DNA of 64,000 bases from Thermoanaerobaculia bacterium (GTDB lineage: Bacteria; Acidobacteriota; Thermoanaerobaculia; UBA5066). The notes beneath the pieces were generated by a model, which saw nothing but the letters and a program-made list of their open reading frames with translations, was not told the origin of the DNA and searched no databases. The position numbers were made by a program, and so were the translations under genes. The stretch spans positions 1,088,001 through 1,152,000 of the forward strand of contig CAVRAY010000001.1 in assembly GCA_963719225.1 (NCBI GenBank). The letters run 5' to 3'. Shown one piece after another: positions 18,544-28,906 of this stretch (within the stretch, counting starts at the first letter, position 1; each line of letters begins with the position of its first letter).

Positions 18544-18595
18544 CGGTTCTCCTCCTTCGTAGAATTTCAGCCGGAGTCGTCCAGAGAGGGACGGC

Positions 18596-18632
18596 GTCTA
18601 ACGATATCAAGCTCAGCGGCGAGCGAAGCGAG
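18596..18632 (-). mobile_element. attC: Half attC, interrupted by an IS3-family end
   Basis: GTCTAACGATATCAAGCTCAGCGGCGAGCGAAGCGAG matches the other attC sites, then diverges. Confidence 0.85.
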
Positions 18633-19420
18633 GGATGTTGACCCGGTCTCGTTGACACGCTGTTAGGCGGCGTTTCGTTCGTAGTTGATCGGCGAAAGAT
18701 AACCCAGGGACGAGTGGAGGCGTTTTCCGTTGTAGCGGCGGACGTAGCGACATACGGCGAGGCTGAGCGAGCGATCGTCTTCGAAGGTGCGGCCGTGGAA
18801 GACGTCGGATTTCATCGAGTGGAAGAAGGACTCGATGAAGGCGTTGTCACAGATCTCTCGGGGGCGCTTCATGCTCTGCGTGATGCCGAGGGCAGCCAGG
18901 CGCGCGCGAAAGGCGTAGGCCGAGTACTCGACGCCGCGGTCGGAGTGAAAGATCAGGCCGGGTCGTGGCTGCTGGTGGCGAATCGCGCGATTGAGAGCCA
19001 TGCGGGTGAGAGTCAGGTCACGCCTGGAGCGAAGACTCCAGCCCAAGACTCGCCGGGAGTGGCGATCCAGCACGACGGCCAGGTAGCGCCAGCGGCCGGC
19101 GCTGCTGAGGTACGTCACGTCGCCGACCCAGATCTCTCCGGGCGCCTTCGTACTCAGGCCGAGTACGCGATTGGGGATCGCGGCATAGAAACGGCGGGTG
19201 CCCGGCGTGCGCCGGTAGAGGCGAGCCGAGCGCGCCTTAAGGGCCGCAGAGCGCATCAGGCGGGCCACTCTCGCCAGCGAGCCGCAACGCGGCATGAACG
19301 CGTGGGCTGCCATAGGTGCCCTCGCTCGCTTCGAAGACGGCGCGAATACGCCCGAGCAGCCGCTCGTCCTCTCGGGCTCGAGCACTCGGCTCGCGGCGGC
19401 GAAAGGAGTAGTACGGCTCT
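18633..19420 (-). pseudogene. Truncated, frameshifted IS3-family element (OrfB and right end)
   Basis: rve DDE domain (WVGDVTY, HSDRGVEY, DNAFIESFF, RLHSSLGYLSP); the N-terminal GTYGSPRV segment is in another frame near 19290-19415; terminal GGATGTTGACCCGGTCTCGTTGACAC; no OrfA. Confidence 0.85.
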
Positions 19421-19526
19421 GTCGGGAGAGCCGATATTTAGGTATTCGTGCACGAGCCTGGCCGCTAACGAGCGTCATTACGATCTCGGTCCGGGGATGT
19501 TGGCTTTGGCCCTTCGGTGTTCGCCT

Positions 19527-19751: not shown

Positions 19752-19923
19752 GACGACGTGGAGGTTGACATTAATGCTTCGGGTCTCTCGTTCCGGGGGT
19801 CTAACGATATCAAGCTCAGCGGCGAGCGTAGCGAGATGGGATGAGAAGGCCGGTCTCCCCAACGCAGTCGGAGAATCCGCTGCAAGGGAAAAGCGGGCTC
19901 GAGGCCCAGAAGGGAGACCGGCC

Positions 19924-21018
19924 GTGAAGAAGCGTAGCACTGGGAACGGGGCCGAGGTGACGGGGGCGTGGACGCTGGGAATGGACTTGGGGGATCGGAC
20001 GAGTCACATCTGCGTGCTTGACGAGGGAGGGACGGTCGTCGAGCGGGGCAAGGTCCAGACGACGCAGGAAGGGATGCGGAAGCGGTTCGAAGGAGCGCCC
20101 CGAATGCGAGTTGCCATGGAGGTGGGGACACATTCGCCGTGGGTGAGCCGGCTTCTAAAAGGGTTTGGGCACGAGGTCCTGGTGGCCAACCCGCGAAAGA
20201 CGCGGCTGATCTACCAGAACCGCGGGAAGCAGGATCCTGTGGATGCCGAGGCGCTGGCGAGGATCGCGCGGCTGGACCCGAAGCTTCTCTATCCCGTGGC
20301 GCACCGGGCCGAGAGCGTCGCGCAGGATCTGGCCGTGGTTCGGGCGCGCGATGCGCTGGTGAGGACACGGTCGCTGCTCATCAATCACGTCCGCGGCGCG
20401 GTCAAGGCGACGGGCCACCGCGTCAAGAAATGCTCGACCCGGACGTTCTCGAAAAGAGCGGTGGGTGAAATCCCCGAGCAAGTGCGCGAGGCGTTGTCGA
20501 GTGTCGTGACGACCATCGAGGTCGTGTCGAAACAGATTCTCGTGCTGGACAAGCGAATCCGAGAGCTGGGGAAAGAGAAATACCCCGAGACAGCGTTGCT
20601 CAGGCAGGTAGGCGGAGTGGGCCCGATCGTGGCGCTGGCCTACATCCTGACGCTCGAGCATCCGGGTCGCTTCCTGAAGAGCCGGGCCGTGGGGCCCTGG
20701 CTCGGGCTTGTGCCGGCGCGAAGCCAGAGCGGAAACTCCGACCCGCAGCTGCGCATCACGAAGGAAGGAGACACCTTGCTGCGCCGGCTTCTTGTTCAGG
20801 CGGCGCAGTACATCCTCGGGCCATTCGGAGAGGACTGCGATCTCAGGCGATTCGGTCAGGCTCTTTCGGCCCGAGGGGAACGCAACGCCAAGAAACGAGC
20901 CGTCATCGCCGTCGCAAGAAAGCTGGCCGTGCTGCTGCATCGGCTGTGGAAGAGCGCAGAGGTCTATGAGCCGCTACGCAGGGCCGGAACGCTCCAGGAC
21001 GCGACCGTGGCGGCCTAA
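19924..21018 (+). CDS. IS110 DEDD recombinase/transposase
   Basis: GMDLG, MEVG, KQDPVDA, SQSG serine motif, AVARKLA. Confidence 0.95.
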   Translation: MKKRSTGNGAEVTGAWTLGMDLGDRTSHICVLDEGGTVVERGKVQTTQEGMRKRFEGAPRMRVAMEVGTHSPWVSRLLKGFGHEVLVANPRKTRLIYQNRGKQDPVDAEALARIARLDPKLLYPVAHRAESVAQDLAVVRARDALVRTRSLLINHVRGAVKATGHRVKKCSTRTFSKRAVGEIPEQVREALSSVVTTIEVVSKQILVLDKRIRELGKEKYPETALLRQVGGVGPIVALAYILTLEHPGRFLKSRAVGPWLGLVPARSQSGNSDPQLRITKEGDTLLRRLLVQAAQYILGPFGEDCDLRRFGQALSARGERNAKKRAVIAVARKLAVLLHRLWKSAEVYEPLRRAGTLQDATVAA

Positions 21019-21059
21019 GAAATCAGCCAAGGGAAACAGCGAAAGGAAATAGCGAGAGG

Positions 21060-21270
21060 TCTCGATCAATCGTGGCCATCCCAATTCGAGCTAACGCCCC
21101 GTCAGGGCGACTGCGCAGCGGACTCCGGTCCCCACGGGTTTCGGCCCGTGAAGGAAAACCGGCGCCGAGATTGCAGCGCCCCTACGGATTGGACCCCCTC
21201 ATGCACCGGGCCAAAAGAACATGGCCTACACGAGTGCGAATGGAAGCTCGGCGAACAACTCGAACCCGGG
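21060..21270 (+). ncRNA. Putative bridge/seekRNA of IS1111 copy A (boundaries approximate)
   Basis: Internal-loop guide GCAGCGGACT (21115-21124) equals the attC target; CATCCCA (21077-21083) and ATGGAAG (21240-21246) match the IS circle junction. Confidence 0.75.
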
Positions 21271-21354
21271 GATTCCCAAAGGAGATCTCAGCCCTCTCTT
21301 GACTACGACCGGCCTTCTCATGGAAGTCCGCTGCAACGAGTTGTTGGGCGGCGA

Positions 21355-21839: not shown

Positions 21840-22019
21840 GACTTTACCGCGGGAGATTCTACTCTCCCTGAGCCGCCTAACGATACCGAGTTCAGCGGCG
21901 AAGAGGAAGGAGCGAAGCGACTGACGATGAGATGGGATGAGAAGGCCGGTCTCCCCAACGCAGTCGGAGAATCCGCTGCAAGGGAAAAGCGGGCTCGAGG
22001 CCCAGAAGGGAGACCGGCC

Positions 22020-23114
22020 GTGAAGAAGCGTAGCACTGGGAACGGGGCCGAGGTGACGGGGGCGTGGACGCTGGGAATGGACTTGGGGGATCGGACGAGT
22101 CACATCTGCGTGCTTGACGAGGGAGGGACGGTCGTCGAGCGGGGCAAGGTCCAGACGACGCAGGAAGGGATGCGGAAGCGGTTCGAAGGAGCGCCCCGAA
22201 TGCGAGTTGCCATGGAGGTGGGGACACATTCGCCGTGGGTGAGCCGGCTTCTAAAAGGGTTTGGGCACGAGGTCCTGGTGGCCAACCCGCGAAAGACGCG
22301 GCTGATCTACCAGAACCGCGGGAAGCAGGATCCTGTGGATGCCGAGGCGCTGGCGAGGATCGCGCGGCTGGACCCGAAGCTTCTCTATCCCGTGGCGCAC
22401 CGGGCCGAGAGCGTCGCGCAGGATCTGGCCGTGGTTCGGGCGCGCGATGCGCTGGTGAGGACACGGTCGCTGCTCATCAATCACGTCCGCGGCGCGGTCA
22501 AGGCGACGGGCCACCGCGTCAAGAAATGCTCGACCCGGACGTTCTCGAAAAGAGCGGTGGGTGAAATCCCCGAGCAAGTGCGCGAGGCGTTGTCGAGTGT
22601 CGTGACGACCATCGAGGTCGTGTCGAAACAGATTCTCGTGCTGGACAAGCGAATCCGAGAGCTGGGGAAAGAGAAATACCCCGAGACAGCGTTGCTCAGG
22701 CAGGTAGGCGGAGTGGGCCCGATCGTGGCGCTGGCCTACATCCTGACGCTCGAGCATCCGGGTCGCTTCCTGAAGAGCCGGGCCGTGGGGCCCTGGCTCG
22801 GGCTTGTGCCGGCGCGAAGCCAGAGCGGAAACTCCGACCCGCAGCTGCGCATCACGAAGGAAGGAGACACCTTGCTGCGCCGGCTTCTTGTTCAGGCGGC
22901 GCAGTACATCCTCGGGCCATTCGGAGAGGACTGCGATCTCAGGCGATTCGGTCAGGCTCTTTCGGCCCGAGGGGAACGCAACGCCAAGAAACGAGCCGTC
23001 ATCGCCGTCGCAAGAAAGCTGGCCGTGCTGCTGCATCGGCTGTGGAAGAGCGCAGAGGTCTATGAGCCGCTACGCAGGGCCGGAACGCTCCAGGACGCGA
23101 CCGTGGCGGCCTAA
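22020..23114 (+). CDS. IS110 DEDD recombinase/transposase (copy B)
   Basis: Same protein as copy A. Confidence 0.95.
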   Translation: MKKRSTGNGAEVTGAWTLGMDLGDRTSHICVLDEGGTVVERGKVQTTQEGMRKRFEGAPRMRVAMEVGTHSPWVSRLLKGFGHEVLVANPRKTRLIYQNRGKQDPVDAEALARIARLDPKLLYPVAHRAESVAQDLAVVRARDALVRTRSLLINHVRGAVKATGHRVKKCSTRTFSKRAVGEIPEQVREALSSVVTTIEVVSKQILVLDKRIRELGKEKYPETALLRQVGGVGPIVALAYILTLEHPGRFLKSRAVGPWLGLVPARSQSGNSDPQLRITKEGDTLLRRLLVQAAQYILGPFGEDCDLRRFGQALSARGERNAKKRAVIAVARKLAVLLHRLWKSAEVYEPLRRAGTLQDATVAA

Positions 23115-23155
23115 GAAATCAGCCAAGGGAAACAGCGAAAGGAAATAACGAGAGG

Positions 23156-23366
23156 TCTCGATCAATCGTGGCCATCCCAATTCGAGCTAACGCCCCGTCA
23201 GGGCGACTGCGCAGCGGACTCCGGTCCCCACGGGTTTCGGCCCGTGAAGGAAAACCGGCGCCGAGATTGCAGCGCCCCTACGGATTGGACCCCCTCATGC
23301 ACCGGGCCAAAAGAACATGGCCTACACGAGTGCGAATGGAAGCTCGGCGAACAACTCGAACCCGGG
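23156..23366 (+). ncRNA. Putative bridge/seekRNA of copy B
   Basis: Same sequence as the copy A region. Confidence 0.75.
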
Positions 23367-23522
23367 GATTCCCAAAGGAGATCTCAGCCCTCTCTTGACT
23401 ACGACCGGCCTTCTCATGGAAGTCCGCTGCAAGGATGGAGTGGACTCCTCCTTCATGACGTGAAACGGCATCTGTGTGCCAACGTCATCGAGTCGGAGAG
23501 TGAAGCCGAAAAGGAGGAGTCC

Positions 23523-24578
23523 ATGGAGAATCCTACGACGATCGCGATCGACCTGTCCAAGAGCGTTTTCGAGATCGCCGTCGAGCGCGGGGGGCGGATC
23601 TGCCAGAGGAAGCGGCTGAGCCGAGGGCAGATGATCACGTTTCTTTCGCAGTGCCCCAGGGCCACGATCCTCATGGAGACGTGTGGCACCTCGCACTACT
23701 GGGGCCGCAAGGCGCAGGAGCTCGGGCACGACGTGCGGCTGCTTCCGGCACAGCACGTCAGGCCGTACCGCATCGGCCAGAAGATCGACCGCAGGGACGC
23801 CGAAGCGATCCTGAGCGCGCGGCACCGAGAAACGATCGTCGCCGTGCCCGTCAAGACGGTCGAGCAGCAGACCATCTGCGCGCTTCACCGGGTGCGCGCG
23901 GCGCTGATGAAGACCCGGACCGCCCGGCTGAACACCGTGAGAGGTCTGCTGAGGGAATTCGGGGTTGTGATTGCCGAGGGAGCCGAGAGAGTCCAGCCGG
24001 CGCTTTTCGAAGCCCTCTCGCAGTCTTCCTCGCCCGTGCCCGAGCCCCTTCACGCGGCGCTCATGGCGATGATGGCCGAGGCCCGAGAGCTCGAGGAAAG
24101 AAGCGGGCAGGTCGAAAAGCAGCTGAAGGCCCTGGCCCGGACGGCTCCTCTCGTCGAGAGGCTCGAGACGATTCCGGGTGTAGGTCTCCTGAACGCCACG
24201 GCGTTTTCTGCGATGGTCGGAGACTTTCGGCGCTTCAAGTCGGGACGGAAGTTTGCGAGCTCGCTCGGGCTGACGCCGAAGGAAAGCTCGAGCGGAAAGA
24301 GAAGGTGGCTCGGGTCGATCAGCAAGGCCGGAGACCCGTACCTCAGGACGCTTTTGATCGGCGGGGCCCGCTCGATGCTGCTCTCGGCCCACCGCAGGAA
24401 AAGGCCGCATGACCTGCAGCGATGGGCGCTCGAGGTCGAGAACAGGCGCGGGCGAAACCGCGCCGCAGTCGCCGTCGCAAACAAGCTCGCCCGGATCATC
24501 TGGGCCGTCGCGACGCGGGGCGAGCCGTTCAAGGCCAGGTTCGCCGCTCAGAACCCTCCAGCAACCGCTTCTGCCTGA
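23523..24578 (+). CDS. IS110 DEDD recombinase/transposase (element C)
   Basis: IAIDLSK, METCG, KIDRRDA, PKESSSG, AVANKLAR. Confidence 0.95.
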   Translation: MENPTTIAIDLSKSVFEIAVERGGRICQRKRLSRGQMITFLSQCPRATILMETCGTSHYWGRKAQELGHDVRLLPAQHVRPYRIGQKIDRRDAEAILSARHRETIVAVPVKTVEQQTICALHRVRAALMKTRTARLNTVRGLLREFGVVIAEGAERVQPALFEALSQSSSPVPEPLHAALMAMMAEARELEERSGQVEKQLKALARTAPLVERLETIPGVGLLNATAFSAMVGDFRRFKSGRKFASSLGLTPKESSSGKRRWLGSISKAGDPYLRTLLIGGARSMLLSAHRRKRPHDLQRWALEVENRRGRNRAAVAVANKLARIIWAVATRGEPFKARFAAQNPPATASA

Positions 24579-24639
24579 AACGAGAAAGTGGGAGAGAAAC
24601 CCGTCAGCCCTTCCCGCCGACGAACGCGAAAGATGCGAC

Positions 24640-24815
24640 AGATGAGCTCGGTCCGACCGACACGGGGCAAAGCCGATAACACCTCTGGCTCCAAGAAGCC
24701 GTTGCACAACGATTGGCCCCCCGTGTGCGGATTTCATCCTGGCCCGGAGCCCACGAAGGCTCCAACAGAAGAGGCCGTAGATACGAGTGCCGTCGCGACC
24801 TTCTCCGCTCATCAC
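24640..24815 (+). ncRNA. Putative two-loop bridge RNA of element C (boundaries approximate)
   Basis: Loop 1: TAACACCTC (24677-24685) and GTTGCA (24701-24706) match the attC target. Loop 2: CATCCT (24735-24740) and AGATA (24779-24783) match the IS ends. Confidence 0.68.
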
Positions 24816-24976
24816 CATCGATCGCGTTCCCACGCAGGAATCGCCCCCGACGACCCAGGATCGCCTGATTTCTTAGAAGGAGAAAAACCACAGACCGCCC
24901 GCACTTGATCCCAAGGAGGAGTCCAGATACGAGGGGTTAGGCCTCGTACGATGCGTGAATAATGGACGACCGAGGC

Positions 24977-25409: not shown

Positions 25410-25489
25410 GCCTAACGATATCGAGTTCAGCGGCGAAGAGGAAGGAGCGAAGCGACTGACGATGAGTCCGCTGCAATGAGTTGTTCGGC
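25410..25489 (-). mobile_element. attC: Integron attC site (intact, 80 bp)
   Basis: GCCGAAC...TGCAGCGG...CCGCTGAAC...GTTAGGC on the minus strand. Confidence 0.93.
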
Positions 25490-26000: not shown

Positions 26001-26525
26001 CTAGGAACTTCTGCCCGAATTGTGGCCCAGGTTCCTATTAGTAGTCACCTGGCGGTGAGCATATCTAGGAACCGCAGGGCGGGTGGGGTCGGGGTGGCGG
26101 GAGGGGGTTTCGAGGGTCCCGGGGGTTCCGGGGGTTCCGGGGGTCCCGAGGGGCCCGTGAGTCCCGAGGGGGGTTCGAGTTGGCGCCACGATCCGGCTCC
26201 TCAGCCTGAGCCTCTCGGCGACGTCGTACCGCGTCCGCCAGAGCATCCTTTCCCTGTCCCACCACGCCCTCGCGTCGCGGAGCCGCTGAATCGCCTTCCA
26301 GTCGTTCGGGTCGATCCTGAGGTAGACCAGCGCACCCGGCGTCGGGCGCCTTGGCGGGTTCCAGGGCCGCAGCTCCGAGGTCACGATCTCGACGGTCGTG
26401 TATCGGATCCGCTCTTTTGCGTCGAACCGGTACCTTACGGATACGAGCCGTTCGCCCCAGTCCCGGACGAACCGGGCTGTACCTTTCTCGCCCGGTCGCA
26501 TCGTCTTGCGGACGACTCCCTGCAT
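26001..26525 (-). CDS. Hypothetical protein in the intI operon, with low-complexity C-terminal tail
   Basis: RPGEKGT...GERLVSVRYRFD...RYTTVEIV core; follows the ydeI-like gene. Confidence 0.7.
   Translation of the reverse strand: MQGVVRKTMRPGEKGTARFVRDWGERLVSVRYRFDAKERIRYTTVEIVTSELRPWNPPRRPTPGALVYLRIDPNDWKAIQRLRDARAWWDRERMLWRTRYDVAERLRLRSRIVAPTRTPLGTHGPLGTPGTPGTPGTLETPSRHPDPTRPAVPRYAHRQVTTNRNLGHNSGRSS
26103..26174. repeat. Degenerate 9-bp tandem repeat (about 8 copies, G(G/A)GGGT(T/C)CC)
   Basis: Units at 26103, 26112, 26121, 26130, 26139, 26148, 26157 and 26166; encodes (GTP)n. Confidence 0.85.
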
Positions 26526-26545: not shown

Positions 26546-27040
26546 TCACGGCGCCTTCTTCTCCGGCCGCGCGAGGATCCCGATCCGGCGTCCGGCGTCG
26601 GAGTCGGCGATCAGCTGCGCGAGGCGACGCGCGCGGGTCTCGGGCTTCTTCGCGCTCGCGACCCAGAACGTCGAGACTCTCGTGTAGCCCGGCGGCTGGG
26701 CCTGGAAGAACCGCCACGCGCCCCGGTGTGCCCGGAACGTCCGCGCCGCCTCGCGGTCGAACGTCAGGGTGCTCCTCTGCTCGAAGGAGTAGACGCCCGT
26801 GCGCTTCGCCTCGATGTACCAGCGGCCTGAGTCGAGGCTGCGCCTGACGCCGTCGATCCACCCGAAGCAGAGCGCCTCGTCCAGCGCCTCGAAGTACGTG
26901 AGGCTCGTGCGCCCGGGCGCCTTCTTGAGGAACCCGACGAGGAGCTCGGTCACCTTCGCGTGGTTCTTCTGGAGCCAGCGGCGGAAGGCGGGGGCATCGT
27001 CGAAGAAGATCGGAGGCGGTGAGCGAGGTGCGTCTCTCAC
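26546..27040 (-). CDS. YdeI/OmpD-associated family protein
   Basis: [35 protein letters not shown]; start overlaps the intI stop (GTGA). Confidence 0.85.
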
Positions 27041-27990
27041 GGCCCGTCCAGCGGGCTCCTGACGCCGCGGCCTCCGGAGTTGAGAACGTGGGTGTAGATC
27101 ATCGTCGTCGCGACGTCGCGGTGGCCGAGGAGCTCCTGGATGGTGCGGATGTCGTAGCCGCTCTCGAGAAGGTGGGTCGCGAAGCTGTGGCGCAGGGTGT
27201 GGCAGGTCGCGAGCCTCGTGATGCCGGCGTCCGCGACGGCCCTCTGGACGGCCCGCTGGACGACGGATTCGGGGAGGTGGTGACGGCGGATTTCACCGCT
27301 CCGCGGGTCGACGCTCTCGCGCCCCGCGGGGAAGACGTACTGCCACGGCCAGCTCTTTGCGGCGCCGGGGTACTTGATGCGAATGGCGTCGGGAAGGTGG
27401 ACGTCGCCGCCGCCGCGCGCGCGGTCCGCGTCGTGCCGGGCGCGGACCTCCTCGAGATGCGCCGCGAGGTCCGGCCTGAGAACGGCGGAAAGCATCGTGA
27501 CGCGGTCCTTCTGGCCCTTGCCGTCGCGGACGAGGATCTCGTTGCGGGAGAGGTCGAGATCCTTGACGCGCAGGCGCAGCGCTTCCATGAGCCTGAGTCC
27601 GGAGCCGTAGAGAAGGGTCGCGACGAGGCGCGGCTCGCCGCGGAGGCGGGCGAGGATCCGGCGGACCTCCTCGCGCGTGAGGACGACGGGAAGGCGTGCC
27701 GGACGCCGGGCGCGGATGAGAGTCGACATCTCGGGGAACGGCTTGTCGAGGACGTTGCGATAGAGGAAGAGAAGCGCCGAGAGCGCCTGGTTCTGGGTGG
27801 AGGCCGCGACGCGGCCCTGCGTCGCGAGGGAGGAGAGAAAGGCGCCGATCTCGGCTTCGCCCATCTCGTCGGGATGGCGTTTGTCGTGAAAGACGACGAA
27901 CCGCCGGATCCATCCGACGTAGGCTTCCTCGGTCCGGAGGCTGTAATGGCGCGTGCGGAGCGCGGCACGCACGCGTTCGAGGAGCTTCAT
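27037..27990 (-). CDS. intI: Integron integrase
   Basis: [24 protein letters not shown], IntI-specific insert (KYP.A...WPWQYVFP...RRHH), [24 protein letters not shown]. Confidence 0.97.
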
Positions 27991-28117
27991 GTTTCCTGCC
28001 GCGCAAAAGGTAGATCCGCGGTGCTCGCAAGTCAAGCGTAAGTTTAGGCCTAGAATGAGCCACGATTCATTTTTTCCATGACGCGCCTCGAAAGGCATGC
28101 TACGTTCCCGGGTTGCC

Positions 28118-28906
28118 ATGAATCAGATCGTCTGCATCGCCTACGTCCCCGACACGGAAACCAGGATCCGCATCGCCCCGGGCGGCGTCTCGATCGACGA
28201 AGCCGACGTGAAGTGGATCGTGTCCCCCTACGACGAGTACGCGCTCGAGGGCGCGCTCAAGACGAAGGAAGCGAAAGGCGGGACCGTCACGGCCCTGACG
28301 TTCGGCCCCGCGCGCGCCGACACGGGCCTGCGCGAGAGCCTCGCCCGCGGCGCCGACGACGCGATCCGCATCGCGTCCGAGGGCCTCGGCGACGTGGATT
28401 CGCTCGGCGTGGCGCGCCTCCTCGCCGGCGTCATCGAGACCCTGCCCTACGACGTCGTGTGGATGGGCAACAAGGGCGTCGGCACGGACGCGCAGCTCCT
28501 CGTGCCCATGCTCGCCGAGCTCCTCGACCTGCCGCACGTGAATCTCGTGACGCAGCTCGAGTGGAAGGACGGCACGGTCGTCGCGCACCGCGAGATCGAG
28601 GGCGCGCAGGAAGTCGTCGAGATGCCGCTTCCCGGCATCATCGGTGCCACGAAGGGGCTGAACGAGCCGCGCTACGCGTCGCTGAAGGGGATCATGGCCG
28701 CGAAGAAGAAGGCGATCGCCGTGAAGACGCCCGCCGACGCCGGCGTCGATCCGGCGTCGATCTCCGGAGACGCCGTGCACGTGCGCTGGACGAAGCTCGA
28801 GCTGCCGCCCCCGCGGCAGGCCGTGAAGCTCGTCCCGGCGGATGACCCGGCGAAGGCCGCGACGGAGCTGCTGCGGCTGCTGCGGGAAGAGGCGAAGGTC
28901 CTTTGA
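28118..28906 (+). CDS. etfB: Electron transfer flavoprotein beta subunit
   Basis: [30 protein letters not shown]. Confidence 0.95.

Follow-up and report, generated by a model that had tools for sequence, protein, structure and literature searches.

The window, a 64,000-nt stretch of DNA, contains an integron integrase gene and a cassette array that shares its strand, and attC repeats recur along it. One attC, starting at 21875, is split twice, by element B and then, beyond a 10-bp remnant of the site, by element C; a second copy of B, element A, occupies the next attC (Table 1). The attC sites were picked by eye from their repeats and boxes, and the names applied to the interrupted site, L'' among them, follow the general anatomy of attC. 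Between the integrase and the first cassette lie an OmdA-domain gene and a GC-rich repeat stretch, and an 11-bp direct repeat is present near 26009 and 26063 on the array side of the integrase. A second cassette array is located at C1 2,197,000-2,210,300 of the source genome; no integrase match was found near it, and the whole source genome has a single intI match at E < 1e-20.

Table 1. Positions of the integron features, insertion sequences and predicted RNA guides in the window.
Feature	Position	Strand	Basis or remark
Element A, second copy of B in the next attC	19834-21324	+	one base different from B
R', L' and variable loop of interrupted attC (bottom strand)	21875-21929	+	98% identity over 57 nt to intact attC at 25410
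Element B, separate IS110/IS1111-type lineage	21930-23420	+	AG core; 15-bp subterminal repeats 21937-21951 and 23403-23417
Predicted guide RNA of B (limits approximate)	23195-23349	+	
Predicted guides of B	right-target 23212-23220; left-target 23258-23265; right-donor 23291-23296; left-donor 23336-23342	+	
Stranded attC L'' segment TCCGCTGCAA, between B and C	23423-23432	+	sequence; compared with intact attC sites
Element C, IS1111-attC group insertion sequence	23433-24929	+	4 left and 5 right junctions in source genome; relatives
Left subterminal inverted repeat of C, 13 bp perfect	23441-23453	+	
DEDD transposase of C, 351 aa	23523-24578	+	PF01548, PF02371; NF033542, 292.7 bits (cut-off 140)
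Predicted long seek/bridge RNA of C, 151 nt	24650-24800	+	alignment pairing
Right-target guide of C, TAACACCTC, pairing target +2 to +10 (spacer, R'')	24677-24685	+	covariation
Left-target guide of C: CAACG (24707-24711), spanning junction, and probably GTTG (24701-24704)	24701-24711	+	covariation
Right-donor guide of C, TTCATCCT, 8 nt, complementary to circle junction A/GGATGAA	24733-24740	+	covariation
Left-donor guide of C, AGATA, then CG	24779-24785	+	covariation
Predicted -35 box TTGATC of circle-junction promoter	24905-24910	+	spacing kept in relatives
Right subterminal inverted repeat of C	24913-24925	+	
Remainder of interrupted attC: spacer and R'' (bottom strand)	24930-24942	+	sequence
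Integron integrase	27037-28119	-	TIGR02249, 467 bits (cut-off 265)

Element C encodes a DEDD transposase with the residues D10, E52, D89 and D92 and the motif GLTP...SSG, its 351 aa being in keeping with the size of about 330-350 aa in the IS1111 family. The source genome carries five copies that are 98.7-100% identical, one of them truncated and four of them in the second array, and all five sit in attC at one register; the copy at C1 2,200,825 occupies a short-spacer attC. Among the four copies with a left end, the base preceding GGATG is A in two and G in two. This variation assigns the base to the target DNA, so that C runs GGATG...AGATA, and the string AGGATG occurs solely as the predicted circle junction. 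Insertion is without target duplication and in a fixed orientation, in the copies as in the relatives. Outside the subterminal inverted repeats C has a 7-nt left and a 3-nt right extension (one terminal mismatch being counted), as in the rule described in PMC11187229 for IS1111 elements, whose subterminal repeats measure 11-13 bp.

The best plasmid match of C is ISPa25 (47.5% identity); ISPpu24, ISPa62 and ISPa21 come next, at about 42%. A quick tree of 59 transposases puts C among 25 rows that include ISPa25, ISKpn4, ISPa21 and ISPa62, a group with a moderate SH-aLRT of 90 that also has members with other than attC targets (L102, L105, L111 and L115 among others). The insertion junction CAA/CGAGGGGTTAG (junctions are marked here by a slash) has the same register, AA/CG, as the published GAA/CGAATTGTTAG, and Table 1 of PMC13604230 gives targets with this register for ISKpn4, ISPst6 and ISPa25. 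Judged by its sequence, C adds one new member to the known IS1111-attC group, an ordinary one when taken alone, and is not a new lineage.

The non-coding region of C lies downstream of the transposase gene and aligns with the RNAs of ISPa25, ISPa21, ISPa62 and ISPpu24, with which it shares a scaffold; an alignment with IS1111-attC elements had been proposed in a first-pass annotation made from the window alone. In the predicted RNA an outer stem surrounds a target arm (24660-24726) and then a donor arm (about 24727-24791), and the two tandem stem/internal-loop/stem modules that the annotation had described are backed by folding and covariation. Across 35 sequences 93.5% of cells are paired, a score tilted toward the window structure because the model was written from the window sequence; 14 of 40 pairs have changed on both sides, and none of 500 shuffles did as well. 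Sliding the partners lowers pairing to 32-46%. The stability of single-sequence folds is modest (z of -2.33 for 351 nt and -1.48 for the core) and is no evidence by itself. Rfam gave no match at the C locus, its sole match in the window being a tRNA elsewhere.

Covariation of the guides with their partners was measured in relatives of C. Both ends and an RNA that could be parsed were available for 54 of 101 candidate loci, most others being truncated; L013 was left out for a mis-parsed left end, and the remaining 53 loci, some of them redundant, represent 12 lineages. All four guides match their own partners better than those of other elements, with permutation p-values that overstate the case since the lineages are related. 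The right-target guide scores 0.82 with cognate and 0.53 with non-cognate targets (p=1e-5; shifts of -2 to +1 allowed), the left-target guide anchored on CG 0.87 against 0.37 (p=1e-5), the right-donor guide 0.79 against 0.64 (p=1.5e-4) and the left-donor guide 0.98 against 0.84 (p=9e-5), each over 12 lineages. The reading of TAACACCTC as a guide to the right target, first made from the window, is thereby sustained. Target position +6 is paired in 20 of 24 close relatives (12 A-T, 5 C-G and 3 U-G) and mismatched in the other four, a count that skips four short-spacer or atypical targets. Within the source genome the right-target guide matches 8, 9, 9, 8 and 6 of 9 positions at the five occupied sites, the six being that of the short-spacer site; in 14 attC sites free of C, hand-picked from the pattern matches, it matches 8 of 9 once, 7 of 9 twelve times and 5 of 9 once.

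The four motifs reported by the first-pass annotation all exist where it placed them, and its proposal that they be compared with shuffled controls gave a divided outcome. When the non-coding region was shuffled 5000 times with its dinucleotides preserved, the match was reached 3377 times for GTTGCA, 623 times for AGATA, 333 times for CATCCT, 14 times for TTCATCCT, and for TAACACCTC 182 times against the window target and never against the commoner target, so most single motifs are weak alone. The ordered set of four was reached in none of the 5000, a post hoc result in that the motifs were chosen with the sequence in view.

GTTGCA, which had been taken as the left-target guide, proved to be misregistered. 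The motif G[CT]TGCA is intact in only 11 of 28 close relatives, although every one of the 28 has the target GCTGCA; CA[AG]CG is found in all 28. GYTG is conserved in the C clade and the 2-3 bases that follow it vary. GTTG probably pairs with the target across this variable bulge of 2-3 nt, after which CAACG takes over; the bulge is an added assumption, because an unbroken left-target match of 5 nt scores only 0.67 in the C clade.

With regard to the donor arm, the pairing of CATCCT with a left end AGGATG holds as far as a donor guide is concerned, and differs in its limits: the left end is GGATG, and the guide is the 8-nt TTCATCCT. The equality of AGATA with the right end marks the left-donor guide, as had been suggested. 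The CG that follows (24784-24785) matches target +1/+2 and not the donor, and the corresponding bases are GG in L115 and L116, whose targets begin GG, an arrangement reminiscent of handshake pairing. It is conceivable, though improbable, that only the target arm works, as a short seekRNA, and that the donor arm is a conserved by-product of elements whose ends are recognised by the protein at the subterminal repeats. Movement of ISEc11 needs no more than an 82-nt seekRNA with target matches, according to PMC11187229; donor ends also vary so little that non-cognate scores are already high (0.64 and 0.84), and the window copy of C has a changed left end (GGATGGA, against GGATGAA in the other copies; position 23439) with an unchanged guide. 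Both donor guides nevertheless covary with the ends across lineages, down to ISKpn4, where ATATG stands at the right end and in the left-donor guide alike, and donor-binding nucleotides were predicted in a multi-loop for many IS1111 RNAs (PMC11208160, in part).

The predicted circle junction of C would join a -35 box TTGATC to TAGGAT over 17 bp, in the form foreseen by the first-pass annotation. Every one of the 9 end variants of the C clade (40 right ends) has TTGA starting 25 nt ahead of the right end, which gives a spacing of 17 bp to TAGGAT; the ISKpn4 group has its TTG at 20 nt, and from there 17 bp separate it from TGTAAT in the left end. A promoter scan of the linear sequence gave none upstream of C on its strand. 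The junction sequence itself was absent from all loci, from the source genome and from four sequencing runs of relatives. Twenty sequencing runs contained only 5-11% of the words; the four that were aligned gave contigs of relatives of mixed identity. Two RNA libraries, both from one study, yielded contigs that span the RNA region, which shows neither transcription nor a habitat.

Elements A and B have the features of IS1111 elements, namely 15-bp subterminal repeats, 7/3 extensions, a 3' RNA and the guide order, and their transposase is 27-33% identical to core IS1111 members, standing apart from ISEc11/IS4321 in a tree that lacks an IS110-type outgroup. Identity to the C transposase is 27-31%. 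Of 301 genomes of the class, 37 have relatives of A/B, and matches to plasmid IS110 elements reach 34% identity at most. A TTGACT box precedes the right repeat of B (window about 23397-23402), and TTGAC is kept in most relatives; no clear -10 box was seen at 17 bp across the predicted junction of B.

Alignment columns gave the guides of this lineage for the 24 elements, out of 30 aligned, that have both ends; 23 of them, in 12 lineages, were used. The target guides covary with sequences that flank a duplicated AG core (0.85/0.45 and 0.88/0.32 for cognate/non-cognate, p=2e-5). The right-donor guide, placed after the target arm, gives 0.74/0.68 (p=0.005), and the attC subclade by itself 0.60 over 4 nt, a weak signal that comes mostly from one position; at +4, guide and end pair in 21 of 22. 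A parse of 15 of the 30 loci, which missed the attC subclade, had given p=0.13 for this tandem donor site over 8 lineages. The left-donor guide ATGGAAG is found in 29 of 30 loci, an invariance that is not independent evidence, since ATGGAAG served as the anchor for extracting the rows.

The relationship between C and A/B bears on two statements of the first-pass annotation, that C carries a second, unrelated bridge RNA and that tandem and nested RNA architectures converge on attC about 10 bp apart. The two transposases are indeed distant; C belongs with ISPa25, ISKpn4 and ISPa21. Of 24 A/B-type elements 7 have targets in attC, and the six of them that the tree includes make up a single subclade (SH-aLRT 100). 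Flanks of the remaining 17 are unrelated and often palindromic, as judged by eye. An AU test rejected the union of the attC A/B subclade with the C/ISKpn4 group as one clade, a group named after the tree had been seen (p-AU 1.95e-86, gap of 273 likelihood units). The tree separation and this rejection indicate that C and A/B reached attC independently, and convergence is thus supported by the sequence comparisons. The crossover of C lies 10 bp from that of B if the latter is placed after the AG core and 12 bp if before it; A/B accordingly inserts 10-12 bp inward of the ISKpn4 register, on the other side of L''. Within the literature searched, no IS110-family element was seen to use a second register inward of L''; Tetu and Holmes 2008 or Post and Hall 2009 may describe further attC positions. 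That unrelated elements target attC is already published for group IIC-attC introns (PMC3001079), as is the presence of IS1111 elements with seekRNAs in attC (PMC11187229), in the parts of both accounts considered here.

The proposed difference in architecture did not stand, and the topology is common to both lineages. In 30 A/B-type RNAs the right-target, left-target, right-donor and left-donor guides follow one another under one outer stem, as in C, and the same order and stem indicate that the RNAs share a topology; the outer stem over both arms has 85.8% of cells paired, and 2 of 4 pairs have changed on both sides. A tandem C and a nested A/B architecture with GTTGCA as the left-target guide of C is a very unlikely reading: the motifs exist at C, CATCCCA (23173-23179) is a 7-nt complement of the left end of B, and the GTTGCA register beats permutation (0.64/0.48, p=3e-4; 0.90 within the C clade, owing to the conserved GYTG), but the nested upstream donor site, for which CATCCC is our guess at what was meant, is limited to 3 of 24 elements and shows no covariation (0.67/0.66, p=0.26), the tandem structure of A/B under its outer stem has 93.4% of cells paired and 13 of 24 pairs changed on both sides, and the low count of intact GTTGCA tells against that register.

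Further elements adjoin attC or sites that resemble it. L052 and L055 have an attC-like left flank with a junction that looks about 2 nt shifted; they are 37-40% identical to C, branch with IS5708 and not with the IS1111-attC group, and are possibly a further independent origin of attC targeting. Relatives of both lineages lie in short palindromic, REP-like repeats (L079-L082, L087 and the L102 group), and such sites are a possible route between palindrome and attC targeting. An IS3-family (rve) fragment in the window (18595-19478) ends inside an attC, a few bases from the register of B. An 87% identical fragment likewise ends in attC in locus L007 (153 minus, 1367), and end motifs resembling those of this fragment adjoin attC loops in three loci (L007, L047 72 and L074 2718); the IS3-type element is possibly a third type favouring attC.

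Taken together, these comparisons make it likely that the 3' RNA of C guides the transposase into double-stranded attC at AA/CG, and that the distant B retargeted a similar RNA to inner L''. By analogy with ISKpn4 and IS621, C would circularise, and the joined ends would form the TTGATC-17-TAGGAT promoter from which the transposase and RNA are made. A complex of the two would recognise duplex target and donor, the target arm reading CAA/CG on one strand and +2 to +10 on the other and the donor arm reading the circle junction. Strand exchange would then insert C without duplication and inactivate the attC of the cassette. The geometry is borrowed from IS621 (PMC11208158 and PMC13626964, in part).

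That duplex rather than hairpin attC is recognised is what we infer, a view favoured by the presence of non-attC relatives on the same scaffold and by the hairpin arm that lacks a CAACG partner in 3 of 3 attC sites. attC folds as a hairpin, if weakly so in the DNA folds computed here, and it is highly improbable that the elements recognise this folded single strand, like IntI, with guides that only fine-tune position: many A/B relatives do lie in palindromic flanks, but the two target guides require opposite strands of one locus, and the same RNA scaffold hits unrelated targets.

The guide footprints explain how double occupancy can arise, which need not mean that it is selected. On the two sides of its AG core B reads about 5 nt (left) and about 7 nt (right); the reach of C to its own left is 9 nt at most. 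Each insertion therefore leaves the site of the other intact, which would allow the arrangement observed. B-type ends adjoin C-type ends at 4 of 50 left ends outside the source genome (2 of 18 distinct flanks); none of 60 related genomes had the B-then-C junction pattern, so double occupancy is uncommon there. A bolder and rather doubtful reading would make L'' a partitioned target, in which two unrelated RNA-guided lineages, and possibly the IS3-type element too, stack in one attC and spare each other's sites, and would make the IS1111-attC RNA, that of ISKpn4 included, a true two-loop bridge RNA whose left-target guide is bulged in the C clade. If true, two orthogonal natural recombinases would be addressable to one short sequence.

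The donor guides, which track the element ends in ISKpn4 as well and whose bases are named here, bear on the choice between a target-only seekRNA and a two-loop bridge RNA. The A/B lineage, with many naturally reprogrammed targets and one branch at a second attC register, offers a clean example, found in nature, of how guides are retargeted, as well as a source of new programmable recombinases. Insertion of either C or A/B would freeze integron cassette mobility.

Among known systems, C is closest to the IS1111-attC group (ISKpn4, ISPst6, ISPa21, ISPa25, ISPa62, ISPpu24; PMC11187229, in part), with which it shares a DEDD transposase at 43-48% identity, subterminal repeats with 7/3 extensions, a 3' non-coding RNA on the same scaffold, a top-strand match that lies 5' of the bottom-strand match, the insertion register and an orientation antisense to the cassettes; its predicted RNA of 151 nt equals the long form of ISKpn4 in Table 1 of PMC13604230. 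Unlike the named elements, C represents a new clade whose closest named records are Acidobacteriota, with guides retuned to the attC of its host, a 2-3 nt insert in the left-target strand, a longer non-coding region, and predicted -35 and -10 boxes of the junction both shifted by 5 nt. The A/B elements are like IS1111-type elements (the nearest named row in the tree being ISGdi15) in the features listed above, and differ from them in general by the duplicated AG core and the inner-L'' register. Group IIC-attC introns, as described in part of PMC3001079, resemble C in being RNA-based, in inserting near the 5' end of attC and in lying antisense to the array, but they are group II introns and not DEDD recombinases. 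The bridge RNA of IS621 (PMC11208160 and PMC11208158, in part) likewise has target- and donor-binding loops with one guide for each strand, and a junction promoter; by comparison with these accounts, C has its RNA 3' of the transposase gene, a reversed guide order, long subterminal repeats and, in place of a shared CT core, only an A at -1 that is shared in some targets.
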